A DNA stretch of 64,000 bases from an uncultured Gammaproteobacteria bacterium (GTDB taxonomy: Bacteria > Patescibacteriota > Microgenomatia > UBA8517), in assembly GCA_964617045.1 (NCBI GenBank), contig CAZTVZ010000002.1:76095-140094 (forward strand), read 5' to 3'. Under the pieces are notes generated by a model, which saw only the letters and a list, made by a program, of their open reading frames with translations, did not search any database and was not told where the DNA came from. Below are positions 20,575 to 42,602 of the stretch, piece by piece. Position numbers and translations under genes: made by a program. The stretch's first letter is position 1, and every line of letters starts with the position of its first letter.

Positions 20575-20596
20575 CAATCTGTTATTATCTTCCCAA

Positions 20597-23056: not shown

Positions 23057-24666
23057 AAATTATTTCGAAAATCATTTTACTTTTGATCATTCTTTCGGGA
23101 ATATTTTTGAGATTTTATAAATTGGAAAGTGTTCCCCCGTCGTTATCATGGGATGAAGCATCTTTTTCTTATAATGCATACACAATTGCGAACTGGGGCA
23201 AAGACGAATGGGGAAAAGTACTTCCCTTTGCTTTCAAATCGTTTGGAGAGTACAAAAACCCGGTTGATATATATATCGCAGTACCCTTCATTAAAGTATT
23301 TGGCCTTAACGAATTGGGAACCAGATTCCCGGCGGCATTGTTTGGAGCGGTAAACATCTTACTAGTCTATTTATTGGGAAAAAGACTTTTCAAAAACGAA
23401 GTCGTTGGTCTTTTTGCTGCATTTTCTTTTGCCATTTCACCATATAACATTCAATTTTCCAGACACCATCATGAACTTAATATTGCTTTGTTTTTCTATC
23501 TCCTTGGTCTTTGGTCTATCATCGGTGCAATTAATAAAGACAAGGTAAAAGGAATGATCTTGGGTTTTGTCAGTTTGGCTATTCCTCTTCTAACATATAA
23601 TGCCGCCAAGATAATTATTCCTCTTACGGTGTTGGGACTCTCAATTATATATTTCAAATATTTTATTAAACATTTAAAGTATTCGTTCGTTGCGGGAATA
23701 ATAGTGCTTGGCATATTCCTCTTTACTTTTTTTGGAGGAGGTTTGTCTGGCAGATCCAGATTATCCCAGGTTGCATTTAAACAGACAGATATCGAACAAA
23801 CATATTTATACAAGAAAACAAAAATTAGAAGGTTGGGACAAATAGAACTTGTTTTCAAGCAATATCCTTTGCATTTTTCAAGCGAATATCTTCTTGAAAG
23901 AGGAGACAAAAACTATAGACATTCAACAGGTGTGATAGGTGAGTATTATAAAATGGACGTTTTTTTGATGCTTCTCGGATTGGGTTATCTGGGATACCTG
24001 ATAATAAAAAAGAAATCGAAAGAAGCACTCCTTTTGTTGGGGGTTATTCTTATTGCCCCTCTTCCTTCTTCTATTGCCAGTGAGGCACCACATGCAGGAA
24101 GAACTATGTTTATGAACGGTTCTTGGCATATCCTGGTCGGTTTGGGATTTATGTTTCTTGTTTCCCAATTAAAACAAAAATTGGTTAAATGGTTGGTTAT
24201 CGGTCTACTGTTGGCAGGTTATGGATTTCAAATGTACGGATATCTGGATTTTCTTTTCAACGATTATGCGAAAAAATATGCAATTGATTGGCAGTACGGA
24301 ATGAAACAGATCGTCGAAACAATTAAAAAACAGGATCCCGAATCCGTACAAAGCGTATATATGACAATAGACAGATGTCAGCCACACATATTCTTTTTGT
24401 ATTATCTCGGTACCGACGTAAATTCGTACAATAAAACAATGATTGTAAATGAAGGACCGAAAAGCGGATGCGAAATAATTAATTCTTTCGAAAAATACAA
24501 TTTCGGAACATGGGATTTCGTGTGGTCCAGACCAATTCAGGGTGTTTATTATGTTTTAACACCAAATGAATATTCGGGACTTGCACACATCAACGATTTC
24601 ACCGTTATTGAAAAGATTCAATATCCTGACGGATCGGATGCATATTTTATCGTTACTTCCTACTGA
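23053..24666 (+). CDS. GT-C glycosyltransferase, PMT_2/GT39-like (paralog 2)
   Basis: ATGA overlap. 'VPPSLSWDEASFSYNAYTIANWGKDEWG', 'FGLNELGTR', 'ERGDKNYRHS'. Confidence 0.55.
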   Translation: MKIISKIILLLIILSGIFLRFYKLESVPPSLSWDEASFSYNAYTIANWGKDEWGKVLPFAFKSFGEYKNPVDIYIAVPFIKVFGLNELGTRFPAALFGAVNILLVYLLGKRLFKNEVVGLFAAFSFAISPYNIQFSRHHHELNIALFFYLLGLWSIIGAINKDKVKGMILGFVSLAIPLLTYNAAKIIIPLTVLGLSIIYFKYFIKHLKYSFVAGIIVLGIFLFTFFGGGLSGRSRLSQVAFKQTDIEQTYLYKKTKIRRLGQIELVFKQYPLHFSSEYLLERGDKNYRHSTGVIGEYYKMDVFLMLLGLGYLGYLIIKKKSKEALLLLGVILIAPLPSSIASEAPHAGRTMFMNGSWHILVGLGFMFLVSQLKQKLVKWLVIGLLLAGYGFQMYGYLDFLFNDYAKKYAIDWQYGMKQIVETIKKQDPESVQSVYMTIDRCQPHIFFLYYLGTDVNSYNKTMIVNEGPKSGCEIINSFEKYNFGTWDFVWSRPIQGVYYVLTPNEYSGLAHINDFTVIEKIQYPDGSDAYFIVTSY

Positions 24667-24707
24667 CAATCTTCCAATTCCATAATATTGTCGTATAATT
24701 GGCCATA

Positions 24708-25973
24708 ATGAAAGTTGCAATAATAGGCGCCGGCTTTGTTGGATTAAGTGCTGCCTTAAATTTGTTGGAAAAAGATGTAGATGTAACATTGTTTGAGAAG
24801 GACTCAATTCCCGGAGGTTTGGCCAACGGATTTAAGGAACCGGAATGGAGATGGAGTTTGGAAAAACATTATCATCATATATTTACTTCTGACAAAATTG
24901 TTCTTGATCTGGCAAATAAAGTAGGACAGAGAATAATATTCAATACACCCGAAACACTCTCCTTTTACGAAGGGGAAGCATTCAGATTGGACAGTCCAAT
25001 GTCTCTACTCGAATTTGGAAAGATTAGTTTTGCCGATAGGGTTAGAACTGGAATTATTCTTCTTTATCTAAAAATTACTTCCGATTGGAAAAAACTGGAA
25101 AGTATTACCGCCGAGAGTTTTATCACAAAATGGATGGGTGAAAAATCGTGGGAAATATTGTGGAAACCACTCTTTGTAAAAAAGTTCGGTAAAGAATATA
25201 AAAAAATACCGGCATCCTGGTTTTGGGCAAGAATTAAAAAAAGAAGTCAGTCATTGGGATATCCGGAAGGAGGGTTTGATTCTTTTTCGGGGAAAATTGC
25301 CGATAAGATAATAAAGAAAAAGGGAGTAATTAAATATCGTGAATTTGTTAAATCCATTAAACCCCACAAAGAAGGGTTTTCGATTGAAACGAACAAGAAT
25401 AAATACTCTTTTGACAAGGTAATATGTACTTTGCCCTCTTCATTGTTTGTAAAAATGGTAAAAGGATTGCCACAGAAATACACAGACAAACTGTTGGGGT
25501 TAAAAGGAATAGGTGCAGTTAACCTAATAATTGAACTTGAGAAACCGTTTATGAAAGGATACTGGTTGAGCATCAACGATATGGATATTCCTTTCCTTTG
25601 TGTCGTGGAACAAACAAATTACATGGAAAGAAGGTATTACGATGGATCAAGGATTTTATATGTGGGGAATTATTTACCTGCAAATCATGAATACTTCGAT
25701 TTAAATGCAAGGCAAATATTAAGTAGATACATGAAGGGGTTGAAACAAATAAATCCCGATTTCAACTACGACTGGATTAAAAGCTTAAAAGTTTTTAAGG
25801 CACCATATGCACAACCGCTGGTGGAAAAAAATTATTCGAAGAAGATACCGGATCTGAAGACTCCCTTAAGGAATCTGTTCTTGGCAAATATCGAACAGGT
25901 GTATCCCTGGGATAGGGGAACCAATTATTCCGTTGAACTTGGTTCTAAAGTTGCCGAGCTTACCCTGGAATAA
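24708..25973 (+). CDS. FAD/NAD(P)-binding oxidoreductase, UDP-galactopyranose-mutase-like/amine-oxidase-like flavoprotein
   Basis: ATG at 24708 gives 'MKVAIIGAGFVGLSAA' (Rossmann GxGxxG); the track's TTG at 24699 is less likely. 'EKD...GGLANGF' and 'HYHHIFTSD' resemble the Glf 'GAHIFHTND' region. Confidence 0.5.
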   Translation: MKVAIIGAGFVGLSAALNLLEKDVDVTLFEKDSIPGGLANGFKEPEWRWSLEKHYHHIFTSDKIVLDLANKVGQRIIFNTPETLSFYEGEAFRLDSPMSLLEFGKISFADRVRTGIILLYLKITSDWKKLESITAESFITKWMGEKSWEILWKPLFVKKFGKEYKKIPASWFWARIKKRSQSLGYPEGGFDSFSGKIADKIIKKKGVIKYREFVKSIKPHKEGFSIETNKNKYSFDKVICTLPSSLFVKMVKGLPQKYTDKLLGLKGIGAVNLIIELEKPFMKGYWLSINDMDIPFLCVVEQTNYMERRYYDGSRILYVGNYLPANHEYFDLNARQILSRYMKGLKQINPDFNYDWIKSLKVFKAPYAQPLVEKNYSKKIPDLKTPLRNLFLANIEQVYPWDRGTNYSVELGSKVAELTLE

Positions 25974-25987
25974 TATACTTCATATAT

Positions 25988-26854
25988 ATGGCCAAGATTT
26001 CGGTTGTTCTTGCTACCCGTAATGAAGAATCTAATATTGCGGGATGTTTGAATTCGGTTAAAGATTTTGCTTCGGAAATGATCGTTGTAGACGAGGGATC
26101 TTCAGATAAAACGGTAGATATCGCCAAATCTTTGGGTGCAAAAGTTGAAATTGTACGTCACGAAACGATTTTCCACAAAACAAAACAAAAAGCCCTTGAT
26201 CTTGCTACCGGTGAGTGGATACTTCAAATGGACGCAGACGAACGGGTAAGCAGCAGGTTGGGTAAAGAGATCAAACAAATAGTACACATGTCAGAAGAAG
26301 AACTGAATGATTATCAGGACGAAGTATTAAACAACAAACTATTTAGAAAACATCAAGCATTGATTGCGAAGAGAGATGGAAAGATAGGGACAGAAAGTGG
26401 TCCTTATTATGCATTTTTTGTTCCAAGACTAAATTATTTTTTGGGTAAATATTTGAGATACGGTGGGGTATACCCGGATGGTGTAATCAGACTTGTAAGA
26501 AAAGGAAAAGCATTCTTTCCGGCCAAGGATGTTCATGAACAAATGACCGTATTGGGCAAAGTGGGTTGGTTGAAAAACGATTTGATTCATATGGCCGACC
26601 CGACATTCAAAAGATATCTTGAAAGAAACTCGAGATATGTAAATCTTCTTTCGCTGGAGCTAAAAAGCAACAAGGTAAAAAAGAACCTGTTTACTTTCTT
26701 GGATTATATGTTTATCAAACCTGCTTATTGGTTAATATTGACTCAAATCAGACACAAAGGAATATTGGATGGTTGGCAGGGTATGGTGTTTTCTTTTTTC
26801 TCGGCATTAAGGTTTCCGAAAGCATATATTAAATACTTAAAAATCAATGATTAA
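25988..26854 (+). CDS. Glycosyltransferase family 2 (WaaE-like)
   Basis: 'ISVVLATRNEESNI', 'MIVVDEGSSDKT', 'QMDADERV', 'GGVYPDGVIRLVRK'. Confidence 0.75.
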   Translation: MAKISVVLATRNEESNIAGCLNSVKDFASEMIVVDEGSSDKTVDIAKSLGAKVEIVRHETIFHKTKQKALDLATGEWILQMDADERVSSRLGKEIKQIVHMSEEELNDYQDEVLNNKLFRKHQALIAKRDGKIGTESGPYYAFFVPRLNYFLGKYLRYGGVYPDGVIRLVRKGKAFFPAKDVHEQMTVLGKVGWLKNDLIHMADPTFKRYLERNSRYVNLLSLELKSNKVKKNLFTFLDYMFIKPAYWLILTQIRHKGILDGWQGMVFSFFSALRFPKAYIKYLKIND

Positions 26855-27893
26855 AGTTGCTATAGATTCAGGTCCCTTAAAAAGCGGAGATTCTGTGAGG
26901 GGTATTGGATTTCATACAAAACTTCTGACAGAACATATGACCAAAGTTAAAGATGTGAGATTCGATATCGTTGATGTCAGAAAAGAAAACCTCGATTCCT
27001 ATGATTTAATCCACTACCAGAAATTCCACCCGTATTTCCTGAGCATTCCATTAACTAAGAAGAAAAAGAGTGTGATCACGATACACGATCTTATATACCT
27101 CCTTTATCCCGATAAATATCCTTCGGGTATTAGAGGAAGAATAATATACGAAATGCAAAAGATATTGGTTAAAAGAATGGATGCAATAATAACCATATCG
27201 GAAACGTCTAAGAAGGATATTGTAAGATTTCTTGGAATTCCGGCTGAAAAGATATTCCCCGTTCATTTGGCGGCAAGGGATACGTTTAAGGTAATAACCA
27301 ATCAAAAATATCTCGATAGTGTAAAGAAGAAATATGCTTTACCGGAGAAATTTGTTTTGTATGTTGGTGATGTTAATTACAATAAAAATTTACCTACTTT
27401 ATGCAAAGCCGTAAAAGCAGCAAAGACAACGCTTGTAATTGTAGGTAAACAAGCAGTAAGTAAAGATTTTGATAAGAATCATCCGGAGAACAAATCCTTG
27501 GTTAAACTTCTTAAAGAGTACGGAAACGACAAGGCGATTAAAAGATTGGGGTTTGTAGACGACGAAGATCTTGTTGCAATATATAACTTGGCAACCGTAT
27601 ATGTACAACCCTCGTTCTATGAGGGATTTGGACTCCCACTTTTGGAGGCTTTCGCATGCAAGCTGCCCGTTATTGCATCAAAAATACAAGCGCATGTGGA
27701 AATCGGAGGAGAAGCTCCTTTGTATGTTGATCCGAAAAAATATGAAGATTTTTCGGAAAAGATAAGAATGGTAATGAACGACGAGAAATTAAGAAAAGAT
27801 ATGATATCAAAAGGTCTTGATAAAGTTTCGGAATACTCATGGGACAAAACTGCAAATGAAACGGCTGAAGTCTATCGCAAAATCACTCAATGA
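26847..27893 (+). CDS. Glycosyltransferase family 4
   Basis: 'YEGFGLPLLEAFACKLPVIAS' GT4 motif. 8-nt overlap upstream. Confidence 0.7.
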   Translation: MIKVAIDSGPLKSGDSVRGIGFHTKLLTEHMTKVKDVRFDIVDVRKENLDSYDLIHYQKFHPYFLSIPLTKKKKSVITIHDLIYLLYPDKYPSGIRGRIIYEMQKILVKRMDAIITISETSKKDIVRFLGIPAEKIFPVHLAARDTFKVITNQKYLDSVKKKYALPEKFVLYVGDVNYNKNLPTLCKAVKAAKTTLVIVGKQAVSKDFDKNHPENKSLVKLLKEYGNDKAIKRLGFVDDEDLVAIYNLATVYVQPSFYEGFGLPLLEAFACKLPVIASKIQAHVEIGGEAPLYVDPKKYEDFSEKIRMVMNDEKLRKDMISKGLDKVSEYSWDKTANETAEVYRKITQ

Positions 27894-29055
27894 TTTTCAG
27901 AAAATATTAATCCTCTTTTTGGTTTGGAGGGTCGTACTGTTTGTAATTGCGTATCTTGCAACGATATTTATCCCAACATGGGGAGGTTGGTATCCGTATG
28001 TTGAGAGGTCTCTTGAAATAACGGGACTTCCGTCGTGGATATGGGGATTTGGAGGGTTTGACGGTGTGCATTACCTTCGGATTGCACAAAACGGTTATGT
28101 TACCGGTTCTCAGGCATTTTTCCCCATATATCCTGTTGTTATCAATTTGTTAAGTAGAATTATTCCTGTTGCTAATTATTATGATCCTCAGTTTTTTGTG
28201 AATACCAATTTCTTTTATGCTGGAATGATAATCTCAAATTTGATATTTATTCCGGCTCTGTGGGTTGTAAAAAAACTATTTGATACATATACCGAAAGTA
28301 GATATTCATGGTTGGCAATTATACTTCTTCTTGTTTTTCCTACGTCATTTTACTTTGGAGCGATATATACGGAGTCGATATTTCTCTTTTTTGCAGCAAG
28401 TACACTCTACTTTTACAAGAAAGGTAATTATTTTCTTGCAGGATTGTTCGGAATACTTACCTCCGCTACAAAGATTGTTGGTATCGCCATCCCCGGAATA
28501 ATGATAATAGATGCCTTAATTGGGCTTTGGAAAAGAGAGATGAAAGGGAAGAATTGGAGAACGCTCTTTTCGGGTATCGTGGGATCATTGGGGCTTCTTT
28601 CCTATATGGCTTATCTTCAGGTTAAATTTGGTGATGCACTTCTTTTTTTGAATTCTCAACCAATGTTTGGTGCAGGAAGAAGCGCAGAGCCGGTGATAAC
28701 TCTTCCTCAAGTATTCTATAGATATTTCAAGATTCTTTCGTCAATTCCGCCAACCGAGATGAGATTCTATAACGCATTGTTTGAACTTCTGCTCACAATA
28801 ACAATTTTGGTTGTACTGCTGGTTTCTGTTAAAAAAATTAAATTCAGTTATTGGTTGGCAACTCTTGCAATGATAATTGTACCTACTTTAACGGGCACAT
28901 TTTCTTCAATGCCTAGATACATCCTGGTAGCATTCTTATTGTTTCCGTTTATTGCCAGCAGGCTCAAAAAAGCCTATACTCCAGTTGCAATCGCCCTGGG
29001 GATCCTGGGCGTTATTTGTATCGCCCTATTTACCAAGGGATATTGGGTAGCTTAA
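27856..29055 (+). CDS. PIG-V/Gpi18-like (GT76-like) mannosyltransferase-type polytopic membrane protein
   Basis: First ATG in the track ORF (the track begins at TTG 27817). 'GGFDGVHYLRIAQNGYVTGSQAFFPIYPVV' matches the PIG-V 'D..HYL.IA..GY...AFFP.FP' signature. About 9 TM segments. Confidence 0.5.
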   Translation: MKRLKSIAKSLNDFQKILILFLVWRVVLFVIAYLATIFIPTWGGWYPYVERSLEITGLPSWIWGFGGFDGVHYLRIAQNGYVTGSQAFFPIYPVVINLLSRIIPVANYYDPQFFVNTNFFYAGMIISNLIFIPALWVVKKLFDTYTESRYSWLAIILLLVFPTSFYFGAIYTESIFLFFAASTLYFYKKGNYFLAGLFGILTSATKIVGIAIPGIMIIDALIGLWKREMKGKNWRTLFSGIVGSLGLLSYMAYLQVKFGDALLFLNSQPMFGAGRSAEPVITLPQVFYRYFKILSSIPPTEMRFYNALFELLLTITILVVLLVSVKKIKFSYWLATLAMIIVPTLTGTFSSMPRYILVAFLLFPFIASRLKKAYTPVAIALGILGVICIALFTKGYWVA

Positions 29056-29712
29056 ATGAAAATATATATTGTAGTTCCGGCTTACAACGAAGGAAAACGT
29101 ATCGGAAAAGTTCTTAAAGAACTAAAAGCTCAAAGACTTCCCGTTATTGTTGTTGACGATGGCTCCAAAGATAATACCTACAAAGAAGCTTTAAAAAGTA
29201 AATATCTTGTATTAAAACACAGAATTAATTTGGGTAAGGGTGCTGCAATGAAAACAGGTGCAATGGCAGCGTTCAAATTGGGAGCTGATGCCGTTATCTT
29301 TATGGATTCGGATGGACAACACAAGGTTGAAGATTTGCCAAATTTTACTAAAGCCTTGAATACAAAGACCGATATTGTTTTTGGTTCACGAAATCTGGGT
29401 TTAAAAATGCCTTTTGTAAGATTTGCTGGGAATAAGGTTGCTTCAGTTTTTGTAAATATTCTATTTGGAATTTATGTCTCCGACTTGGTGTGTGGTTTTA
29501 GGGCAATTACGAAAAAGGCGTTTACCAAAATAATGTGGGAATCTACGGGATATGGAGTCGAAACCGAAATGGTAATTCGTACCGCAAAGTCGGGTTTAAT
29601 GCATTGTGAAGTACCCGTTAAGACGGTATACTATGACCAGTATAAGGGTGTTAGCATTATGGATGCTTTTGACATCCTTTTTAGTGTTTTAAGATGGAGA
29701 ATTAAATTATGA
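29056..29712 (+). CDS. GT2 polyprenol-phosphate glycosyltransferase (DPM1/GtrB-like)
   Basis: 'IYIVVPAYNEGKRI', 'VIVVDDGSKDNT', 'FMDSDGQH', 'FGSRNLG', 'CGFRAITKKAF'. Confidence 0.65.
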   Translation: MKIYIVVPAYNEGKRIGKVLKELKAQRLPVIVVDDGSKDNTYKEALKSKYLVLKHRINLGKGAAMKTGAMAAFKLGADAVIFMDSDGQHKVEDLPNFTKALNTKTDIVFGSRNLGLKMPFVRFAGNKVASVFVNILFGIYVSDLVCGFRAITKKAFTKIMWESTGYGVETEMVIRTAKSGLMHCEVPVKTVYYDQYKGVSIMDAFDILFSVLRWRIKL

Positions 29713-30053
29713 TTTTGGGATTACAGGTAGCAGCAATAGTATTTTCATTGACCATGATTTATTTGGCCGTGCTTCACTTTAAAAAAGGCGAAATTGATTC
29801 AATGGAAATTGCATCATGGATTGTGATTTGGGTCATCACAATTTTGATTGTGATATTCCCTGATATCGTAAGAGTTTTTGCTCAATCCTTTGCTGTATCA
29901 AGACTGCTTGACCTTCTTATCGCCGGCGGGTTTGTTCTTGTTATTTCAATGGTTGCATCAACTTATGTTAAATCCAGAAGAATTGAGAAAAAACTTGAAG
30001 ATTTTATCCGAAAAGAAGCCTTGAAAAATATTGATAAGAAAAGCAAGAAATGA
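29709..30053 (+). CDS. Small 3-4 TM membrane protein (DUF2304-like partner of polyprenol-P glycosyltransferases)
   Basis: ATGA overlap with the DPM1-like gene. 114 aa with hydrophobic segments and a basic C-terminal tail. Confidence 0.4.
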   Translation: MILGLQVAAIVFSLTMIYLAVLHFKKGEIDSMEIASWIVIWVITILIVIFPDIVRVFAQSFAVSRLLDLLIAGGFVLVISMVASTYVKSRRIEKKLEDFIRKEALKNIDKKSKK

Positions 30054-30832
30054 AATCTTATCCCAAGATATCTATTGTTGTTCCCTCATTAAATAAGGGT
30101 AGATATATTGAACAAACTCTCCAATCAATAATAGATCAAAAATACCCGAATCTTGAAGTGATCATTAAAGATGGCGGTTCGTCAGATAATTCAATTGAAA
30201 TTATTAATAAATTTATTAAGAAATATAAAAATACATTTAAATTGATTGTGAGCAAAGACAAAGGGCAATGGGACGCGATAAACAAAGGCTTTTCAATGGC
30301 AACCGGAGATTTGCTTGGATTTATTAATGCTGATGATATGTATGCAAAAAAAGCCCTGATTAATATTGTTAAGGCTTATTCTGCAAACCCCGATAGCCAA
30401 TGGTTCGCAGGAGAAGGGAAAACGGTCGATGAAATGGGTAGAGAATGTTCGACGTTCACCGATAATTATAAAAATTGGCTTCTAAAACAAAATAGGTACA
30501 AGTTTCTCCTTGCTATAAATTATTTGTTTCAACCTTCCGTGTTTATAACTAAAAAATGTTTTAAAAAATATGGACCTTTTGTTGGGGAAGGAAAATATGT
30601 AATGGAGTACGACATGTGGTTAAAGATCGCAAAAACAGAAATGCCTACTCTAATACAGAAAGTGGTTTCAGAGTTTAGACTTACAAGGGAAGGTGCTTCG
30701 ATAAAGGAATACAGGAAGCTGTTGAAGGCTGATGAAAAAATATTGGAAAATCAATCCGATGACATATTTACCAATATGGTCCACTATGTACACAACATTG
30801 CTCGGATAATAATCGTATACTTTTTTAAATGA
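30050..30832 (+). CDS. Glycosyltransferase family 2
   Basis: ATGA overlap. 'ISIVVPSLNKGRYIEQTLQSI', 'VIIKDGGSSDNS', 'INADD'. Confidence 0.7.
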   Translation: MKSYPKISIVVPSLNKGRYIEQTLQSIIDQKYPNLEVIIKDGGSSDNSIEIINKFIKKYKNTFKLIVSKDKGQWDAINKGFSMATGDLLGFINADDMYAKKALINIVKAYSANPDSQWFAGEGKTVDEMGRECSTFTDNYKNWLLKQNRYKFLLAINYLFQPSVFITKKCFKKYGPFVGEGKYVMEYDMWLKIAKTEMPTLIQKVVSEFRLTREGASIKEYRKLLKADEKILENQSDDIFTNMVHYVHNIARIIIVYFFK

Positions 30833-32286
30833 AAACTAAACTTATATTCTTTGGTATTGTGTTAATCACTCTCATTCTTTATCTACCTTCTTTTAATGTT
30901 TTTTATACGAATGATGATTTCTTTTTGTTAAAAATATCTCAAGCGAACAATATTTCTGAATTTATGAACTTTTTTAATTTTACAAAAGGGCCGGACGGAC
31001 TAGGGATGTATAGACCTTTAACGATACAAGTGTTTTATTTTCTTGCCCATTCTCTTTTTAATCTAAATCCTTTTCCGATGCATGTTGTTGTGTTTATTGT
31101 CTTTACCCTACTTCTTTATTCAATTTTCCTGTTGTCACGGAAATTGTTTGGATATTTGAAGGTTAAAAATAAAGACAATCCGAGCTTGTTGGTGGTGTTT
31201 CTTTATGCAATGTCCGCAACTCATTTCGGTCATATGTATTATCTGGCAACATTCCAAGAGGTTGCGATGACTTTATTTTCGGTCGTATGTATTTATTATT
31301 ACTTAAACTTTCTTGATAATAAGAATATAACAAGCATATTTTTATCTTTCATGATGTTTGTTTTGGCGTTGCTTTCTAAAGAAAATGCAGTCGTTATCCC
31401 TGGTTTATTATTTTCCACGTATTTATTTAGGCAGATTGCTGTTAAAGATAAAATCGTGCTGGTTAATGTTGTAAAACAACTTGCACCTTTTGCCATATTA
31501 TTGTCAATATATTTATATTTCCATTTTTTTGTGTATGGTTTGGCCACAGGGGATAGTTATGTGTGGGATTTTTCAATTAGAAAGATTTTGAATACTCTTT
31601 CGTGGTATTTACTGTGGTCGTTTAATATTCCTGAAATGTTTGTTGACTTTGTTGGACCTGGTTTGAAAATAAATCCCAATCTAATGAAATATTGGGCCGA
31701 TGAAACAACAGCAATTGTTTTAGGGTTTTTGATTATAGTTTTAACAATGGGAATTGTATTTATAAAAACTAAAACATCAAAGCAACTTTTATCCCTCTTG
31801 TTGTTTTCTGGAATGGGCTTTGTTGTATCTTTAGTTCCTGTTCTTTTTCTTCCAATTCATAAATTTACCTTTTACCTCACTCTTCCTTTGGTTTTCATTA
31901 CGATGAATGTGGCGTATTTACTAATCGAGAGAAACAAATTACTTGTATATGTTTTTGTTGTTTCCTGGTTGTTTACTTCATACAATACGCTTTGTTTGAC
32001 CAACAAAACCCATTGGATTACTCGTGGCCAAGAAATTGCGCAAGAAGTAAATAAATTTATAACCACAAATATATTAGAGTTTGAAGGAAAATCTTTAGTG
32101 TTTGTTGATACTCAAGAAGATGAGCCACTTCCATGGAGCCCAACGGAAATTGTAAAAACTGCGTTATCAAACCAAAATTACTTCGATGTATATTTTCCCA
32201 AGCAATTTATCACCATAACGTACAGTGAAACCAGCAATGAGATTATTCCTAATGCAATACACTCTAGACAATTTTTAGGTTATTAA
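30829..32286 (+). CDS. Polytopic membrane protein, putative GT-C
   Basis: ATGA overlap. 'FYTNDDFFLLKISQ' DD motif after TM1, about 11 TM segments, soluble C-terminal domain. Confidence 0.4.
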   Translation: MKTKLIFFGIVLITLILYLPSFNVFYTNDDFFLLKISQANNISEFMNFFNFTKGPDGLGMYRPLTIQVFYFLAHSLFNLNPFPMHVVVFIVFTLLLYSIFLLSRKLFGYLKVKNKDNPSLLVVFLYAMSATHFGHMYYLATFQEVAMTLFSVVCIYYYLNFLDNKNITSIFLSFMMFVLALLSKENAVVIPGLLFSTYLFRQIAVKDKIVLVNVVKQLAPFAILLSIYLYFHFFVYGLATGDSYVWDFSIRKILNTLSWYLLWSFNIPEMFVDFVGPGLKINPNLMKYWADETTAIVLGFLIIVLTMGIVFIKTKTSKQLLSLLLFSGMGFVVSLVPVLFLPIHKFTFYLTLPLVFITMNVAYLLIERNKLLVYVFVVSWLFTSYNTLCLTNKTHWITRGQEIAQEVNKFITTNILEFEGKSLVFVDTQEDEPLPWSPTEIVKTALSNQNYFDVYFPKQFITITYSETSNEIIPNAIHSRQFLGY

Positions 32287-32292
32287 AGATAT

Positions 32293-33087
32293 ATGGATAC
32301 TAATCAAATTAAAACATATGAAAGTCTTTACAAGAGAAAAGAGTTTCGCAATTTGGATTTGTCAGATTACAAAATTACTGATGGTGAAATTATTCATGGA
32401 AAGAAAGTTCTTGTAGTTGGTATCGGAACTGCAAGAGATATCCGTTACTTATTAGGTAAAAATACAGTATGGGGAATCGATAATTCAACTGAAGCAGTTC
32501 GTTTCTCCAAAAAATTGGGTATAAATGCTACTGTTGGTAATGTTGAAGAAAAGCTTCCTTATATCAAAGATTATTTTGACATAGTGGTAATAAAAGATGT
32601 ACTTGAGCATGTTGATGATTCGGTTTCACTGCTTAAAGAATGTCGTAGGGTATTAAATAAAAATGGTTATATTGTTGCAAGTGTTCCTAATCATTTTTAT
32701 TTTCCTTTTAGAATAAGAATACTTTTTGGGAGCAACATGATATGGAAAAGTATCGGTCACGATCATACGAAGTTGTTTGATGAATGGAATTATATGCATA
32801 AGCGTTTTTTTACATGGAGAGGTTTTAATAAAATGATAACAATAAGTGGCTTAAAGATTGTCAAATCGTATTGGGACTTCGGAACACTTGCACACTACAA
32901 TCAACCAGATATTGTATTAAGGTACTTATCTCAAATCAAACTCAAGAATACACTTCTGTTAAATGTGTTAAAACTATCATGGAAGGTATTTTGTTTAATA
33001 TTTCCCTCTACAGTTAGATCAAAAATTGTATCATTAAGTCCAGATTTATTATGTGCAGGTTTTTACTCGCATTTAAAGAAAAAATAA
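32293..33087 (+). CDS. Class I SAM-dependent methyltransferase
   Basis: 'VLVVGIGTARDI' motif I, 'VWGIDNS', 'FDIVVIKDVLEHV'. Confidence 0.65.
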   Translation: MDTNQIKTYESLYKRKEFRNLDLSDYKITDGEIIHGKKVLVVGIGTARDIRYLLGKNTVWGIDNSTEAVRFSKKLGINATVGNVEEKLPYIKDYFDIVVIKDVLEHVDDSVSLLKECRRVLNKNGYIVASVPNHFYFPFRIRILFGSNMIWKSIGHDHTKLFDEWNYMHKRFFTWRGFNKMITISGLKIVKSYWDFGTLAHYNQPDIVLRYLSQIKLKNTLLLNVLKLSWKVFCLIFPSTVRSKIVSLSPDLLCAGFYSHLKKK

Positions 33088-34010
33088 AACACCATCTACC
33101 CCTATTATGTTTAGGAACATTATTTGGTATATATCTTACGTTCAATATCCTTGAAACGTATTATTTCCCGGGCCTTGTAAAAAAATACTTGTTTTTTCCA
33201 AAAGAAATAGTTTTAATCCCCTTTTATTATTTTGTGATTCTCTTTGGCAAACAATTAAAAGAAGTAAGGATATTATTTCCGATTTTAAAGATGTTGCTGT
33301 TGATTTTGGCAGCAATATTTCTGACATTATTAGCTATCGAATCAATATACTATTCAAATTATGTGCTGAAAACATACCATATACACATCATTGAAGTGCT
33401 AAATCTTTTTACATTTTTTGGAATGATATTCATATTGATAAATAATACGAAAATTATCAAATTATTTATCAAGAGCAAAGCTTATCTTATTCGCATTTTG
33501 ACAATAGTATCAGTTGTTACCATAGCGATATATTTACATATTAATTTTGTTAGCACAATGAATTATGGTCTTGGAGAATTAATGTTTATTATCAAAAATA
33601 GTAATTACGATTATGAACAAAAAAGAGCTTATCGTTGGAGGGATATAGATGCGTATATTGATTTAATAATTAACAATACTCCTCCAGATGCGATTATATT
33701 AATTCCACCACTAACTGAAAAATGGCAAACAATCGGGAATGGTGCAGTTGTCAAATATTTTATTCGACCACGAAAAACTGTGAATGGTGATTTTTCAGAA
33801 AAATTTGCATATTTCGATTGTGCACTTTTTGTTAGCGGGGAATATTATATTGAAACAAGAATGTTCAATATTTGGCCGAACCAAAAACATGATGCTAAAA
33901 GAATAATATTTTTTAATAATTTAACAAAATCGTATCAAGAAATATTCTCAAACTATTATCCTGATGACACAAGATATTCGAACACTTACGGACTTTTTTG
34001 CGTGAATTAA
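33051..34010 (+). CDS. Hypothetical membrane-anchored protein
   Basis: 319 aa with N-terminal TM segments and a soluble C-terminal region ('RWRDIDAYIDLIINNTPPDAIILIPP'). No recognisable family. Start uncertain; it overlaps the upstream gene by 37 nt. Confidence 0.3.
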   Translation: MCRFLLAFKEKIKHHLPLLCLGTLFGIYLTFNILETYYFPGLVKKYLFFPKEIVLIPFYYFVILFGKQLKEVRILFPILKMLLLILAAIFLTLLAIESIYYSNYVLKTYHIHIIEVLNLFTFFGMIFILINNTKIIKLFIKSKAYLIRILTIVSVVTIAIYLHINFVSTMNYGLGELMFIIKNSNYDYEQKRAYRWRDIDAYIDLIINNTPPDAIILIPPLTEKWQTIGNGAVVKYFIRPRKTVNGDFSEKFAYFDCALFVSGEYYIETRMFNIWPNQKHDAKRIIFFNNLTKSYQEIFSNYYPDDTRYSNTYGLFCVN

Positions 34011-34011
34011 T

Positions 34012-35304
34012 ATGTTTACTCTTTTACTAATTGTTCAAATGTTTTTAGGTAGTCTAATCGTAAAAAGCATTAACAAATCTGCCAAATTGATAGAGATCTT
34101 GGGATTGGGATTTTTTGTTGGTCATGGATTATATTCGTTGGTGTTATTTCTACTTTTATATTTAGGTTTAAAACCAAACATTGCCAGTAGCGTCTTTGCA
34201 ATTTTTATATTGATTACGGCATCAACATTGTCTTATCTATTATCTAAACCAATAACCAATCATATTAGTACTAAATTTAATTTCAAAAATAAATTGGGGA
34301 AAACCAAACCATTATTGTATTTGATATTGTTCGTGATTGCCCTTTCTCTTGTTAGTAACATATATTGGCCCCCTTTTGACTGGGATTCTGCGGCACTTTA
34401 TGACATGCGAGCGTTAAAGATAATCGAGATGGGCTCGCTTGATGCAATAAATGGTGAGTTTTATTACTTGACTTATCCCTTTTTCACAACAATGAGCCAT
34501 TTGTCGGCTTATGTAATGGGTGCAAAAAATCCAAGTTGTTTGTATACAATTTATTTATCACTTTATTTATCATGCTTATTCTGTGTTTATAAGTTGAAGA
34601 GTTTGTTTCCATTGGTTCTTATTGTTTTAAATACACTAATATTTCAGCATTCAACAATGGCTTATACAAATCTACCCTACACGATATATTTTACATTATC
34701 TGTAGCATACCTATATAAATGGTTAAAAACGAAAACCATTTCTTATCTATATTTGTCTTCATTATTACTTCCATTGAGTTATTGGACAAGGAGTTTTGAG
34801 CCATTTTGGATTTTGCCAATTTTGTGTGTTTTATATATGAGTATAAGAAATCGACAAATATATCCACTTATTACATACACTTTACCATTATTTGTAGTAA
34901 TGTATTTTTGGAAAAAATATTTGATATTATCTGGAATTCCTACTGGAGGTGCTCTTACGGAATATGGGGGATTATTCTCAAAACTCAATTATTCATCTAT
35001 TGTGCTTTCAGATTCAGTCAAATATATTATAGAAAATTTGTTGTTTCCAAATTTCTTATTAATAATAATCTATATTGCGTCAACTATTATTAAATTATTA
35101 AAAAACAAGAATCTCAATATTATTGACTATTTTATATTTGGAATCGTAGCGATTTGTTTTGCCGGAACGTATCTATATAGATTAAATGGGATATATGATG
35201 ATTGGATCCAGTTGGGTGAATCGTACAAAAGAATATCTATGATTTTTGTTCCATTATTTTCGATTCAAATATATATTAATATATTTAAAAGCACTCATGA
35301 ATAA
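34012..35304 (+). CDS. Polytopic membrane protein, ArnT/GT-C-like
   Basis: First loop 'WPPFDWDSAALYDMRALKIIEMGSLD' is the same D..A.R......G motif class as 4941.., 38961.. and 47474... About 11 TM segments. Confidence 0.4.
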   Translation: MFTLLLIVQMFLGSLIVKSINKSAKLIEILGLGFFVGHGLYSLVLFLLLYLGLKPNIASSVFAIFILITASTLSYLLSKPITNHISTKFNFKNKLGKTKPLLYLILFVIALSLVSNIYWPPFDWDSAALYDMRALKIIEMGSLDAINGEFYYLTYPFFTTMSHLSAYVMGAKNPSCLYTIYLSLYLSCLFCVYKLKSLFPLVLIVLNTLIFQHSTMAYTNLPYTIYFTLSVAYLYKWLKTKTISYLYLSSLLLPLSYWTRSFEPFWILPILCVLYMSIRNRQIYPLITYTLPLFVVMYFWKKYLILSGIPTGGALTEYGGLFSKLNYSSIVLSDSVKYIIENLLFPNFLLIIIYIASTIIKLLKNKNLNIIDYFIFGIVAICFAGTYLYRLNGIYDDWIQLGESYKRISMIFVPLFSIQIYINIFKSTHE

Positions 35305-36091
35305 ACCCTTTTTTTCAATAATCACTTGCACTCTGAATAGTGATCAATACATCAATAAAAATATCCAATCTGTACGTAGTCAATGTTTTAAAAATTACGA
35401 ACATATAATAATTGATGGATATTCAAAGGATTTAACAATGGATATTATAAACAGATATCGATTCGCTGATAATCAGAAGGTAATTGTAAAAAAGCAAAAA
35501 CCAAAAGGTGTTACAGCGGCATTCAACAAAGGAATTGGTGTGTCTAAGGGTAAATATGTAATCCATCTTAATTCTGATGATTATTTATACGATAATAACG
35601 TGCTGAATGATGTCTATATATATCTAAAAAAGAACACTCATCTTGATTGGATATTCGGTAAAGTAGTCGTACGAACAAAAAAAGGAGTAAAAATTGGCAC
35701 GATTCCACATTTCAATTTTATGGGTAAATATGGAAAATTTATCTTAAGAATGATTAACGTGGTACCTCATCAATCAGTGTTTATTAAAAAGGATATATTT
35801 AATAAATTTGGTTTATTTGATCGAAATATAAAATACCTCCCTGATTATGAATATTGGTTGAGAATTTGCAATAAAACAAAATGGGAATTCCTTGACCGTG
35901 TAATAGCAGTATTCATTGCTAGGCATAATTCGGTATCGATGTCTGAAAGAAATATGGTTAAAAACAAAATTGAAACAATAAAATATCATACAAAATATTG
36001 CTCATCTTTTGAGAGTATCTTATTCCAAATTATTAATTATAATTTCATTATTAAAACAATAAGAAAACTTAGAAACAATTTTGTTTTATGA
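35297..36091 (+). CDS. Glycosyltransferase family 2
   Basis: ATG at 35297 gives 'MNKPFFSIITCTLNSDQYI' (8-nt overlap). 'IIIDGYSKDLT', 'LNSDD'. Confidence 0.7.
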   Translation: MNKPFFSIITCTLNSDQYINKNIQSVRSQCFKNYEHIIIDGYSKDLTMDIINRYRFADNQKVIVKKQKPKGVTAAFNKGIGVSKGKYVIHLNSDDYLYDNNVLNDVYIYLKKNTHLDWIFGKVVVRTKKGVKIGTIPHFNFMGKYGKFILRMINVVPHQSVFIKKDIFNKFGLFDRNIKYLPDYEYWLRICNKTKWEFLDRVIAVFIARHNSVSMSERNMVKNKIETIKYHTKYCSSFESILFQIINYNFIIKTIRKLRNNFVL

Positions 36092-41324: not shown

Positions 41325-42602
41325 GTGAAAAAATATTTAAGTCGAGCATATTCTCTTGCAACTTCGGGTACCGCAAAAGATACATATATTTTGTTTATCG
41401 GTAATATATTTGCTGCTTTTTTGGGTTTTGTTACTACCTTGGTGTTGGCAAGATCTTTGAGCATTTCCGATTTTGGAGTATATTCAGCAGCAACAAATTT
41501 GATAGTAATTATTAGCTCCCTTACTGACTTGGGAATATCAAGTGGTTTGGTAAGCTTTGCGTCAGCTGCTTTTTCATCTGGAGAAACGAAAAAGGCATAT
41601 GAATATTCTAAGGCTGCTTTTTTAATAAAAATATTTGCAACAATTCCTCTCGTTCTTTTTACAATAATTTTCGCCCAATTCGTATCGAATAATTGGTTGG
41701 CAACAACAGATCCGATGGTGTCAGTATGGGTCGGTGTCGTATCCCTTGTTGCTGTAATTTGGGGATTTATTCCATATATCCTTCAATCTAAAAAATTATT
41801 CCTGAAAGGAGTAATAATCGATATTTCTTTGAGTTTACCAAAAGCAGTAATTCCATACCTCTTGATGATTTTTGGACTTCTTACCGTCAATACTTCTATG
41901 GCTGCATTTGCTGTTAGTGCAGCAATTGCGGGTATGGTTAGTTTTGCTTTTGTCGGTTTCGGATTTTTAAAATCAAAACCGTCAAAAGAGACATATGTAG
42001 AACTGGCAAAATTTTCCAGTTGGATCGGGATAAACCGAATAATATCTTCAATATCGGGGAAACTTGATGTTCAGATGCTTGCTGCAATGGCCGGTGCTAC
42101 ACTTACAGGTTTGTATTCTATCCCAATGAGATTATCTTCTATCATTATTGTATTCGCGTCCAGTTTTTCTGCGGTTTTGGCTCCTCGCTTTGCTTCTTTT
42201 GGGGACAAAATAAAAGAAAAAAGGTATTTAATCAAAGCTTCTTTGGTGATTATTCCCATTATTTTTGGAATTCTTCTTGTTACGTACTATGCAAAACCGT
42301 TTGTGCTAATTCTTTTTGGTGATAAATACCTTGAAAGTGTTCCCGTGTTCCAAGCATTATGTCTCGTTTTAATCCCTTATATTATTTCCGTACCTCCTGT
42401 TGCAGCAATTATTTATTCTATGAAGAAAACAAAATATATTGGCCTCTTTTCTTTTTATCAAATTGCCGCAATTTTCTTAATTAATTATTTCCTGATTCCA
42501 ATCTATGGCGCCTTTGCCCCGGCGATTTCTTTTGGTGTTGTGTATCTTAGCTTGGCAATTTACTCTTGGATAATCGTGTTTAAACACTACTGGATAAAAT
42601 GA
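41325..42602 (+). CDS. Wzx/MOP-superfamily oligosaccharide flippase
   Basis: GTG start after a 37-bp gap. 425 aa with about 12 TM segments. 'ILFIGNIFAAFLGFVTTLVLARSL' is a typical Wzx N-terminus. Confidence 0.55.
   Translation: MKKYLSRAYSLATSGTAKDTYILFIGNIFAAFLGFVTTLVLARSLSISDFGVYSAATNLIVIISSLTDLGISSGLVSFASAAFSSGETKKAYEYSKAAFLIKIFATIPLVLFTIIFAQFVSNNWLATTDPMVSVWVGVVSLVAVIWGFIPYILQSKKLFLKGVIIDISLSLPKAVIPYLLMIFGLLTVNTSMAAFAVSAAIAGMVSFAFVGFGFLKSKPSKETYVELAKFSSWIGINRIISSISGKLDVQMLAAMAGATLTGLYSIPMRLSSIIIVFASSFSAVLAPRFASFGDKIKEKRYLIKASLVIIPIIFGILLVTYYAKPFVLILFGDKYLESVPVFQALCLVLIPYIISVPPVAAIIYSMKKTKYIGLFSFYQIAAIFLINYFLIPIYGAFAPAISFGVVYLSLAIYSWIIVFKHYWIK

Follow-up and report, generated by a model that had tools for sequence, protein, structure and literature searches.

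Systems similar to the locus considered here have been described in streptococci and in Mycobacterium tuberculosis. In the former, the DUF2304 protein GacJ (113 aa, 3 TM segments) co-purifies with GacI and raises GacI activity (bioRxiv 10.1101/180810); in the latter, Rv3632, a homologue of GacJ/DUF2304, stimulates PpgS (bioRxiv 10.1101/180810; PMC3485146; bioRxiv 10.1101/2022.05.16.492151). The lipid-linked monosaccharide is consumed in both systems by a GT-C enzyme, GacL and Rv3779, respectively (bioRxiv 10.1101/180810; PMC3485146; bioRxiv 10.1101/2022.05.16.492151), and both characterised synthases with a DUF2304 partner yield HexNAc-P-polyprenol (bioRxiv 10.1101/180810; bioRxiv 10.1101/2022.05.16.492151). 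Note that GacL has been placed in the GT-C superfamily by HHpred only (bioRxiv 10.1101/180810). The GT-C enzyme Rv3779 hands the sugar to a wall polymer; the M. tuberculosis system and its counterpart in Corynebacterium glutamicum (Cgp_0393/Cgp_0658) both function in the galactosamine decoration of arabinogalactan. The latter is a Corynebacteriales-specific polymer (bioRxiv 10.1101/2022.05.16.492151) and is not expected as an acceptor in Patescibacteria.

The window, i.e. the whole stretch of 64,000 nucleotides that was analysed, contains three consecutive genes encoding a GT-C membrane protein, a short GT2 and a DUF2304 protein (Table 1). As in the GacI/GacJ/GacL cluster, a short GT2 is followed by a DUF2304 protein of about 113 aa with three TM segments, and a GT-C belongs to the same cluster; the GT2 is likened to GacI by description. 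Differences from the streptococcal cluster are that the GT-C belongs to the PF04188/PIG-V family, that the nearest Wzx gene is 11 kb away and that the host is a Patescibacterium. The mycobacterial synthase PpgS (Rv3631) is the best curated match of the GT2, from end to end. In M. tuberculosis the gene numbering (Rv3631/3632 versus Rv3779) places the GT-C apart from the synthase pair, whereas it abuts the pair here.

On balance, and with moderate confidence, we regard the trio as a bacterial unit of three components for extracytoplasmic glycosylation, comparable to GacI/GacJ/GacL and PpgS/Rv3632/Rv3779. The short GT2 would act on the cytoplasmic side and charge polyprenyl phosphate with a single sugar taken from a nucleotide sugar; in the membrane, the DUF2304 protein would bind and stimulate this GT2. 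A translocator would flip the polyprenyl-P-sugar to the outer face, where the PIG-V-like GT-C (with Asp69 in its first external loop) would glycosylate an envelope acceptor from the lipid-phosphate-sugar donor. This acceptor would probably be pre-assembled by the co-conserved cytoplasmic GT2 of 288 aa and the GT4. We infer that the GT-C consumes the product of the short GT2; the assignments of acceptor and flippase are likewise putative. The precedents of PpgS and GacI slightly favour a HexNAc as the sugar, mannose not being established. Streptococci and mycobacteria already provide examples of the scheme as such; the present locus would add a member whose GT-C is a distant relative of an enzyme of the eukaryotic GPI-anchor pathway.

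Table 1. Features of the window that are relevant to the three-gene locus.
Feature	Coordinates	Strand	Remarks
Wzx-type gene	7-1311		
AglJ-like GT2	20558-21337		
GT2, 288 aa, not synthase-like	25988..26854	+	PF00535 E 1e-16
GT4 cytoplasmic glycosyltransferase	26847..27893	+	PF00534 E 1.3e-33; most constant GT-C neighbour
Alternative TTG start of the PIG-V-like GT-C	27817	+	ORF 27817..29055, 412 aa
PIG-V-like (PF04188 family) GT-C membrane glycosyltransferase	27856..29055	+	399 aa ORF
Short GT2, predicted GacI/PpgS-type polyprenyl-phosphate-sugar synthase	29056..29712	+	218 aa; PF00535
DUF2304 small membrane protein (GacJ/Rv3632 family)	29709..30053	+	114 aa; PF10066
GT2, 260 aa, start overlapping the DUF2304 stop	30050..30832	+	PF00535 E 1.1e-25
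Second polytopic GT-C-like protein, 485 aa	30829..32286	+	PF13231 (PMT_2) weak: E 1.3e-4, 22.7 bits, below cutoff
Wzx-type (Polysacc_synt) flippase candidate	41325..42602	+	PF01943 E 2.7e-22; PF13440 E 1.6e-13

The gene junctions were read directly. The TAA stop of the GT-C is followed immediately by the ATG of the GT2 (29055/29056, zero spacer), whereas ATGA overlaps join the GT2 to the DUF2304 gene (29709-29712) and the latter to the next GT2 (30050-30053); the start of the GT-C is overlapped by 38 nt by the upstream GT4. An earlier note on this DNA had listed the three open reading frames, motifs in the first two and the translational coupling of the last two. The frames and motifs were found again, and the coupling corresponds to an ATGA overlap. 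In the 399-aa protein, GGFDGVHYLRIAQNGY corresponds to residues 66-81 (nt 28051-28098) and AFFPIYP to residues 87-93 (nt 28114-28134); in the GT2, DSDGQH, FGSR and CGFRA occupy residues 84-89, 109-112 and 146-150.

Sequence comparison shows the 399-aa protein to be homologous to eukaryotic PIG-V and to belong to the PF04188/PIG-V family, as the earlier note had proposed; fragment scores, homologue matches, hhalign and a vertebrate HMM agree on this point. The HMM search suggested there held for part of the protein: hmmscan of the full-length sequence against PF04188 gave no match, even at E <= 10, whereas residues 1-260, 50-250 and 59-240 scored 35.9, 39.3 and 37.2 bits (fragment E 7e-10 to 7.5e-9) and exceeded the gathering threshold of 22.4 bits. 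The full-length miss is a dropout in the HMMER prefilter, i.e. a filter artefact rather than a true negative. A protein with 98% identity (P0001) reached 35 bits, and 47 of 50 homologues matched PF04188 (best E 1.2e-16). An hhalign comparison of the bacterial profile with a vertebrate PIG-V profile gave a probability of 97.2 and an E-value of 3e-11 over 200 columns, spanning residues 13-221 here and 5-215 in the human protein. With filters off, a vertebrate-only PIG-V HMM assigned 40.6 bits to the 399-aa protein (E 4.6e-13 among 55 window proteins) and at most 4.6 bits to the other 54, which include 11 further GT-Cs. Judged from these scores, the resemblance is specific to PIG-V rather than to GT-C enzymes generally.

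Eukaryotic PIG-V/Gpi18 (GPI mannosyltransferase II, CAZy GT76) shares with the 399-aa protein about 200 N-terminal residues, the GT-C fold and the Asp of the first loop. The motifs WDAEHFLFIAEHGY..AFFPGFP and YSE(A/S)LF of PIG-V correspond to FDGVHYLRIAQNGY..AFFPIYP and YTESIF here, and the next helices align too; the likeness is not limited to the short quoted block, as had been considered in the earlier note, but reaches past it. It is confined to the N-terminal part: PF04188 matches span profile positions ~54-254 of 443, no alignment of the C-terminal half with PIG-V was obtained beyond about residue 220, and the C-terminal domain match to the vertebrate HMM was non-significant (i-E 12). 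The eukaryotic protein is also longer (~493 versus 399 aa). The first luminal loop of PIG-V carries an acidic D/ExE motif (PMC6056205, Table 1). Here, the first external loop, predicted to be catalytic, comprises residues ~39-116 and contains the invariant D69 in FDGVHY. Human D67-A-E69 aligns with D69-G-V71, i.e. half of the motif is conserved; throughout the bacterial family the Asp is invariant, whereas the second acidic residue is replaced by a nearly invariant Val. An AF2 model (pLDDT 87.9, pTM 0.90), whose top Foldseek matches were STT3, AglB, PglB, EmbC, Pmt4, ALG9/12, ArnT and PimE, predicts that the protein adopts the GT-C fold: it is polytopic and has a long first external loop with the conserved Asp. 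No GPI pathway context, as for PIG-V, was found among the window proteins scanned.

The short GT2 matches PF00535 with an E-value of 3e-23. Among NCBIfam models, PpgS (polyprenyl-P-GalNAc synthase) scored best with 104 bits, GT2 residues 3-212 covering model positions 2-220 of 226. Since the equivalog cutoff is 370 bits, far above this score, sugar specificity is not transferable; the candidate assignment as a PpgS orthologue, which would imply GalNAc specificity, was rejected in favour of homology. Among solved structures, Pyrococcus Dol-P-Man synthase (5mlz, E 1.5e-13) and ArnC come closest, in agreement with the earlier view of a polyprenyl-phosphate glycosyltransferase relative. The more specific labels "mannosyltransferase" and "DPM1-like" could not be confirmed, given the PpgS match and the HexNAc products of the characterised synthases. 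The protein has neither a C-terminal nor any other TM segment, whereas the other of the two full-length synthase-like GT2s of the window has one at residues 229-253. D35, D84-x-D86, Q88, H89, R112, R122 and D143 are invariant in 34 paired GT2s. From its sequence, we classify the protein as a polyprenyl-phosphate-sugar synthase homologue of the GacI/PpgS type.

The guess that the 114-aa protein might belong to DUF2304 proved correct (PF10066, E 6.9e-18). It has three hydrophobic/TM segments and a basic C-terminal helix; F12, W37, P51, R65 and D68 are invariant among 34 sequences, and there is no second DUF2304 protein in the window. By analogy to GacJ and Rv3632, it is presumed to be the activating partner of the GT2. 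The pairing itself was found to be obligate: a DUF2304 gene directly follows the GT2 in 65 of 68 independent metagenome loci, and 43 directly adjacent pairs occur in genome loci, most commonly with an overlap of 4 nt (spacing -4). GT2 and DUF2304 constitute a portable two-gene module.

The link of this module to the PIG-V-like GT-C is lineage-specific. In a forward survey, biased by the choice of loci that all carry the PIG-V-like gene, the pair lay downstream in 41 of the 66 loci that offered 5 kb of room; about 25 of the 66 lacked a nearby DUF2304 pair. When loci were instead chosen via the GT2, a PIG-V-like gene was found within 4.5 kb in 12 of 41 GT2-DUF2304 loci; for the closest GT2 relatives, it lies upstream in about 9 of 11. 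The three-gene unit is not fixed as a whole. Steadier neighbours of the PIG-V-like GT-C are the GT2 and GT4 encoded upstream of it. The GT4 immediately precedes the GT-C in 57 of 73 loci (tblastn) and is found no more than 4 kb away in almost every locus with room (HMM); the 288-aa GT2, which matches the nucleotide-binding half only of the synthase profile, has a counterpart upstream of the GT4 in most related loci, giving a GT2-GT4-GT-C block. A counterpart of the 260-aa GT2 comes after DUF2304 in many related loci.

Pfam matches among the window proteins scanned (to ~55.3 kb) comprise PMT_2, GT87, YfhO/PTPS-related, GT2 and GT4 families. In agreement with the comparison drawn in the earlier note, the genes upstream are PMT_2-family GT-Cs lying on both sides of the second synthase-like GT2. 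At least 12 GT-C enzymes face two synthase-like GT2s, so a donor is probably common to several GT-Cs; in an island of such density (12 GT-Cs, two synthases) adjacency is weak evidence. No GtrA-like or Wzx-like flippase gene adjoins the trio. The Wzx-type candidate at 41325..42602, 11 kb downstream, is a possible translocator. In one related locus (L013), a 424-aa polytopic protein encoded two genes past the GT-C is putatively Wzx-like by appearance.

A less probable explanation is that two modules are merely adjacent. The GT-C would then act with the upstream GT2 and GT4 on a donor from another synthase (e.g. the AglJ-like GT2), and the pair would feed the block of the 260-aa GT2 and the 485-aa GT-C-like protein, which may use the lipid-linked sugar instead, or several other GT-Cs of the island. 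The GT2-GT4-GT-C order is indeed more constant than GT-C-GT2-DUF2304, the PIG-V-like gene is infrequent in the reverse survey, and there are two synthases to at least 12 GT-Cs in the window. Extra genes are inserted exactly between GT-C and GT2 in ~17 loci (an Fcl-like epimerase in L003), which suggests two separable modules, and GT2-DUF2304-GT2(-GT-C2) travels as a block in L003, L008, L012, L016 and L017, where an orthologue of the 485-aa protein lies downstream of GT2-DUF2304-GT2. However, a GT-C2-like gene follows the pair in 8 of 41 pair-bearing loci only, no second GT-C being detected downstream in 33, so it is not a general consumer; the nearest GT-C is the PIG-V-like gene in most of these loci, and GT-C stop and GT2 start abut without spacer here. 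It is unlikely that the polyprenyl-P-sugar of the pair primes, in the manner of AglJ, a lipid-linked oligosaccharide that would be extended in the cytoplasm by the overlapping 260-aa GT2 and further GT2/GT4 enzymes, flipped by a Wzx-type protein and, once outside, either polymerised or passed on en bloc. An archaeal lipid-linked sugar can serve as glycan primer rather than as single-sugar donor; the Haloferax N-glycan is built on dolichyl monophosphate, with AglJ acting first. AglJ is the second-best curated match of the short GT2 (88 bits), the next GT2 overlaps the DUF2304 gene, and there are two Wzx-type flippases in the window. Moreover, DPANN archaeal contigs (Woesearchaeota-type) carry GT2-DUF2304 pairs with 40-47% identity directly downstream of AglB/STT3 and upstream of GT9. 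The position of AglB/STT3 in the same slot fits a general order of GT-C, synthase and DUF2304, as in the three-component unit. In contrast to the archaeal AglJ/AglB loci, the window proteins scanned yielded no STT3-type transferase; both studied synthases with a DUF2304 partner supply monosaccharide donors to GT-C enzymes, and those PIG-V-family enzymes whose activity is known add single sugars.

Least probable is a functional GPI mannosyltransferase II, an activity defined by alpha-1,6-mannosyl transfer to Man-GlcN-(acyl)PI. The GT-C would then use polyprenyl-P-mannose to put an alpha-1,6-mannose on a glycolipid anchor, of the phosphatidylinositol type or another, begun by the adjacent GT4, and a bacterium would have a GPI/PIM-like anchor. 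The specific homology to PIG-V, rather than to other GT-C families, the conserved first-loop Asp and HY/FFP motifs, and the tight, wide link to a GT4, a CAZy family that also contains PIG-A and PimA/PimB, point in this direction. Against it stand the end of homology near residue 220, the conserved Val in place of the second acidic residue, and the adjacent synthase, which resembles the HexNAc type more than the mannose type and differs in this from the setting of PIG-V. Furthermore, there were no matches to PF05007 or PF03901 (PIG-M/GT50, PIG-B/GT22) among the window proteins scanned, to ~55.3 kb, and none of the PimA, MshA and PIG-A models matched the GT4 specifically. A broader idea, which we consider very unlikely, is that the widely conserved GT2-GT4-PIG-V-like block of Microgenomates builds a membrane glycolipid anchor, the GT4 starting it inside like PIG-A/PimA and the PIG-V homologue extending it outside, and that CPR bacteria and DPANN archaea have exchanged the GT2-DUF2304 donor module, which would serve AglB in the archaea. 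If true, the eukaryotic GPI mannosyltransferase II step would have in this block a counterpart among prokaryotes, perhaps one related to its ancestor.

The bacterial family to which the GT-C of the proposed three-component unit belongs is large. The earlier statement that bacterial members are uncommon is wrong: a word-indexed search gave 2,105 hits, and 15,219 cluster representatives were found at E <= 1e-3. The PIG-V-like family occurs in 343 species genomes, mostly of Microgenomates. A literature search found no experiment on bacterial PF04188 members; the label used by JGI for them is already "Gpi18-like mannosyltransferase".

The ORFs surrounding the PIG-V-like GT-C agree with the earlier note: the three proteins are encoded as it described, and all peptide strings quoted from them were found in the translations. 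The junctions, which were read directly, are tight. The GT4 gene overlaps the start of the PIG-V-like gene by 38 nt, the TAA stop of the latter abuts the ATG of the short GT2, and an ATGA overlap is found between the short GT2 and the DUF2304 gene and again between the DUF2304 gene and the next GT2. A scan of positions 24600-32400 for promoters and terminators found them no more often than shuffling would predict and was uninformative.

Coordinates of features in the window and, where a locus is named, in related loci
Feature	Position	Strand	Length	Remark
Wzx-type flippase	7-1311			Pfam scans
Protein with two GT-C-type regions	10470-13754		1,094 aa	PTPS_related/YfhO 57-433, PMT_2 622-752
Large ORF	15010-16986		658 aa	No Pfam match at E<=1e-3
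Large ORF	16967-18973		668 aa	No Pfam match at E<=1e-3
Second synthase-like GT2	20558-21337			Own C-terminal TM segment
FAD-dependent amine-oxidase/phytoene-desaturase-like protein	24699-25973		424 aa	Just upstream of GT2-GT4-GT-C block
Upstream GT2	25988-26854		288 aa	
Upstream GT4	26847-27893			
PIG-V-like GT-C	27856-29055	+	399 aa	412 aa from alternative TTG start at 27817
Short GT2	29056-29712	+	218 aa	
DUF2304 protein	29709-30053	+	114 aa	
GT-C, weak PMT_2	30829-32286			
ORFs in low-GC segment	33051-34010, 34012-35304, 36088-36810, 36810-37718			No Pfam match
Wzx-type flippase	41325-42602			Pfam scans
Large ORF	47462-48739		425 aa	No Pfam match at E<=1e-3
GT2	54351-55256			
STT3/AglB, locus L130	4827-7985			MBS3105530.1
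STT3/AglB, locus L110	55-3816			PPIase domain
STT3/AglB, locus L143	4457-7876			PPIase domain
STT3/AglB, locus L160	4791-7976			
Epimerase/reductase, locus L003	7202-8155		~310 aa	Between PIG-V-like gene and pair
Epimerase/reductase, locus L013	7131-7952			Between PIG-V-like gene and pair

The assignment of the 399-aa protein to the PIG-V family, which the earlier note proposed to check with PF04188, gave a divided result. Run full-length against Pfam with hmmscan, the protein failed to match PF04188 at thresholds of E<=0.01 and E<=10 alike, whichever start codon was used; fragments cut from it (residues 1-260, 50-250 and 59-240) reached 35.9-39.3 bits, and a homologue that is 98% identical scored 35 bits, the gathering cutoff being 22.4 bits. 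A PF04188-negative reading is overturned by these scores, and the full-length miss is therefore a dropout of the HMMER prefilter. Because a genuine family member was silently missed in this way, a Pfam scan of a polytopic membrane protein that finds nothing can be a prefilter artefact and should be repeated on fragments or without filters. A precomputed PF04188 match exists for nearly all of 2,105 database homologues, several of which carry the JGI label 'Gpi18-like mannosyltransferase'. When 50 family members were scanned individually, 47 matched PF04188 (best E 1.2e-16), and 25 matched PMT_2 and seven GT87 with much weaker E-values.

For a comparison with the eukaryotic enzymes, vertebrate 'GPI mannosyltransferase 2' sequences were fetched with a human PIGV sequence that served as bait only (best match 97% identical to it); 19 vertebrate PIG-V sequences were aligned and converted to a profile and an HMM. 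Compared profile to profile, the vertebrate sequences and the bacterial family aligned with a probability of 97.2% and an E-value of 3e-11 over 200 columns, bacterial residues 13-221 matching human residues 5-215; the resemblance thus reaches well past the short block on which it had been noticed. With all filters off, the vertebrate-only HMM matched a single one of 55 window proteins, the PIG-V-like GT-C (40.6 bits, E 4.6e-13), and the best score among the other 11 window GT-C proteins was 4.6 bits. The homology to PIG-V is therefore real, specific and far longer than the quoted block. PDB sequences, searched with the protein itself and with a profile of its family, yielded only chance chitinase matches (E ~0.4).

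The family is large. When 1.84 billion cluster representatives were searched by profile without filters, 15,219 of them matched at E<=1e-3, 10,214 at E<=1e-10 and 1,649 at E<=1e-30, and 343 genomes of a species-representative set encode a relative; these numbers refute the statement that bacterial members are uncommon. Among the best 80 of the 343 with a lineage name, Woese-, Davies-, Curtiss-, Gottesman-, Chisholm- and Pacebacteria, i.e. Microgenomates/Patescibacteria, overwhelmingly prevail. The literature searched contained neither a characterised bacterial PF04188/GT76 protein nor a report on CPR GT-C glycosylation. The analysis ties this bacterial branch, which comprises more than 10,000 sequence clusters and has no studied member in that literature, to a conserved GT2-GT4 block. 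The three proteins encoded at 27856-30053 are present in NCBI without names. The Microgenomates-type gene order, with proteins 35-48% identical, also occurs in many genome records entered as 'uncultured Gammaproteobacteria', 'Pseudomonadales' or 'Spirochaetia' (among them loci L006, L008-L010, L012, L020, L023, L051 and L069); these are probably taxonomically mislabelled Patescibacteria MAGs.

The 114-aa protein, for which DUF2304 had been suggested, does belong to this family (PF10066, E 6.9e-18). It contains three hydrophobic segments, and its C-terminal helix is basic; no solved relative was found among PDB sequences. Its partner, the short GT2, matches PF00535 (E 3e-23). The best curated family of this GT2 is PpgS, with an end-to-end alignment of 104 bits that is far under the 370-bit equivalog cutoff, followed by AglJ (88 bits) and a haloarchaeal dolichyl-phosphate hexose transferase (68 bits); among solved structures, Pyrococcus Dol-P-Man synthase (5mlz, E 1.5e-13) and ArnC come closest. 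In an alignment of 34 DUF2304 proteins extending to ~20% identity, only F12, W37, P51, R65 and D68 are invariant, R65..D68 being located just ahead of the third TM segment. Like the conserved basic C-terminal helix (EKKLE..R..AL), this pair of residues is a candidate for contact with the partner GT2 or for a functional role towards it.

Two characterised systems are a direct precedent for the pair. In S. pyogenes, the gene for the 113-aa, 3-TM DUF2304 protein GacJ comes right after gacI. GacJ co-purifies with GacI, a GT2, and makes it produce more GlcNAc-P-undecaprenol; with this lipid the GT-C GacL decorates polyrhamnose (bioRxiv 10.1101/180810). The GacJ homologue Rv3632 stimulates PpgS (noted in bioRxiv 10.1101/180810), the polyprenyl-phospho-GalNAc synthase of M. 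tuberculosis, and the GT-C Rv3779 passes the resulting sugar to arabinogalactan (PMC3485146); a PpgS-type system is also conserved in Corynebacterium glutamicum (bioRxiv 10.1101/2022.05.16.492151).

How constant the arrangement is was assessed from both sides. In a forward survey of 82 loci selected for carrying a PIG-V-like gene, HMMs built from the loci located a short GT2 (median 226 aa) directly followed by a DUF2304 gene downstream of it in 49; among the 66 loci whose sequence continues for 5 kb or more downstream, the pair was present in 41. A single inserted gene often displaces the pair by ~1 kb, which is why a tblastn count with a narrow distance window (16/78) was an underestimate and was replaced by these counts. 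The GT4 lies directly upstream in 57/73 loci (tblastn) and within 4 kb upstream in nearly all loci with room (HMM); it and the 288-aa GT2 are more constant neighbours of the PIG-V-like gene than the pair is. In the reverse survey, which comprised 80 metagenome loci selected through the short GT2, a DUF2304 gene follows in 65 of the 68 loci with room, and a PIG-V-like gene is found within 4.5 kb upstream in only 12/41, mostly beside the closest GT2 relatives. The idea of a fixed three-gene unit has to be given up on this count; the association of the pair with the PIG-V-like gene is specific to Microgenomates.

In more distant loci of the reverse survey, a 900-1250-aa STT3/AglB-type oligosaccharyltransferase (PF02516, E 1e-33 to 1e-42) directly precedes GT2-DUF2304 and a GT9 follows; in two of them it is fused to a C-terminal PPIC-type peptidyl-prolyl isomerase (PPIase) domain. 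One such protein, MBS3105530.1, is from a Candidatus Woesearchaeota archaeon, and the module is therefore common to CPR bacteria and DPANN archaea. In one further locus, DUF2142 and PMT_2 proteins stand on either side of the pair. Given the 65/68 count and the different upstream families, GT2-DUF2304 is thus a near-obligate, portable two-gene module which accompanies different GT-C families by lineage. The STT3/AglB-adjacent pairs, seen in about 13 of the 21 metagenome loci inspected, are 40-47% identical to that of the window.

In L003, at the same position in ~17 related loci and likewise in L013, a gene for an NAD-dependent epimerase/reductase falls precisely at the junction of the PIG-V-like gene with the pair; the window lacks it. 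The L003 protein matches GDP-L-fucose synthase best (295 bits, below cutoff); the insertion might point to a 6-deoxyhexose in the lineages concerned.

Judged by its gene families, the window is one large glycosylation island, in which all but two ORFs of at least 150 aa are on the + strand; it contains no tRNA gene (positions 1-64000). Pfam scans, which covered most ORFs up to ~53.2 kb and one GT2 beyond, identified twelve GT-C-type proteins (seven above-threshold and one weak PMT_2, two YfhO/PTPS-related, one GT87 and one PIG-V-like), ~12 GT2s, ~7 GT4s and several methyltransferases. Only the short GT2 (329 bits) and the second synthase-like GT2 (133 bits) match a profile of DUF2304-paired synthases over the full length, and there is just one DUF2304 gene. 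Since only two donor synthases face a dozen GT-Cs, several of the latter probably draw on each donor, and adjacency alone is weak evidence of an exclusive partnership. An own C-terminal TM anchor had been expected in GT2s lacking DUF2304; this was not supported (0/15 unpaired close homologues vs 3/43 paired), and the contrast is valid only between the two synthase-like GT2s of the window.

The best-supported reading, which we hold with moderate confidence, is a three-component glycosylation scheme. It starts from what is observed, namely the families, the folds, the GT2-DUF2304 pairing and the gene overlaps. At the inner membrane face, GT2 and DUF2304 protein would make a polyprenyl-P-monosaccharide, which would then be flipped outward; the PIG-V-like GT-C would move a sugar from such a donor onto an extracytoplasmic acceptor, partly built by the conserved upstream GT2 and GT4. 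Here we infer the flippase, the acceptor and the link between donor and consumer. The sugar is likewise an extrapolation: by analogy with the precedents HexNAc is slightly favoured, mannose is unsupported, and no nucleotide-sugar biosynthesis genes pointing to a sugar were found in the scanned portions. The scheme keeps the families and the general logic of the earlier note and drops its terms 'uncommon', 'mannosyl' and 'three-gene unit'.

That the PIG-V-like GT-C and GT2-DUF2304 are two independent modules which merely adjoin is a less probable alternative; the portability of the pair fits it, and the abutting genes and the recurrence of the pair in the forward survey fit a common function. 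Priming of a lipid-linked oligosaccharide in the manner of AglJ, with the overlapping downstream GT2 as extender, appears unlikely; AglJ is the second-best curated match of the short GT2. We consider it very improbable that the PIG-V-like GT-C is a true GPI/PIM-like anchor mannosyltransferase; the homology to the vertebrate enzyme would suit this function, and the precedents of the pair lean towards HexNAc. The downstream 485-aa GT-C (30829-32286) was rejected as general consumer, being present in only 8/41 pair-bearing loci; it is a possible partner of the pair in this genome.

Under the three-component scheme, the system is a novel example of an already known type, and its general interest is moderate to low. 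To our knowledge, hardly anything is known about envelope chemistry in Patescibacteria (CPR), although at least 64 kb of this genome serve it. One slice of the island is now tied to a mechanism for which experiments in other bacteria set a precedent, and this offers a concrete, testable entry to the CPR cell envelope; the main use of the analysis is as a starting point for its study.

Further observations concern neighbouring genes. The 424-aa protein matches NCBIfam PRK07233 'hypothetical protein' (415 bits, cutoff 252) and has a counterpart in two related loci, L017 and L060; in four others (L001, L002, L003 and L013), a short-chain dehydrogenase gene is located between GT2 and GT4. The PMT_2 region of the 1,094-aa protein scored 20.4 bits (E 6.3e-4), under the cutoff of 26.1; this protein, one of the two YfhO/PTPS-related GT-Cs, may have arisen by fusion of two glycosyltransferases of the membrane. 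At 30001-40000, beginning just past the DUF2304 gene, GC content falls from ~0.36-0.37 to 0.285-0.32 and is back up by ~42 kb; this segment may be a variable or recently acquired part of the island.
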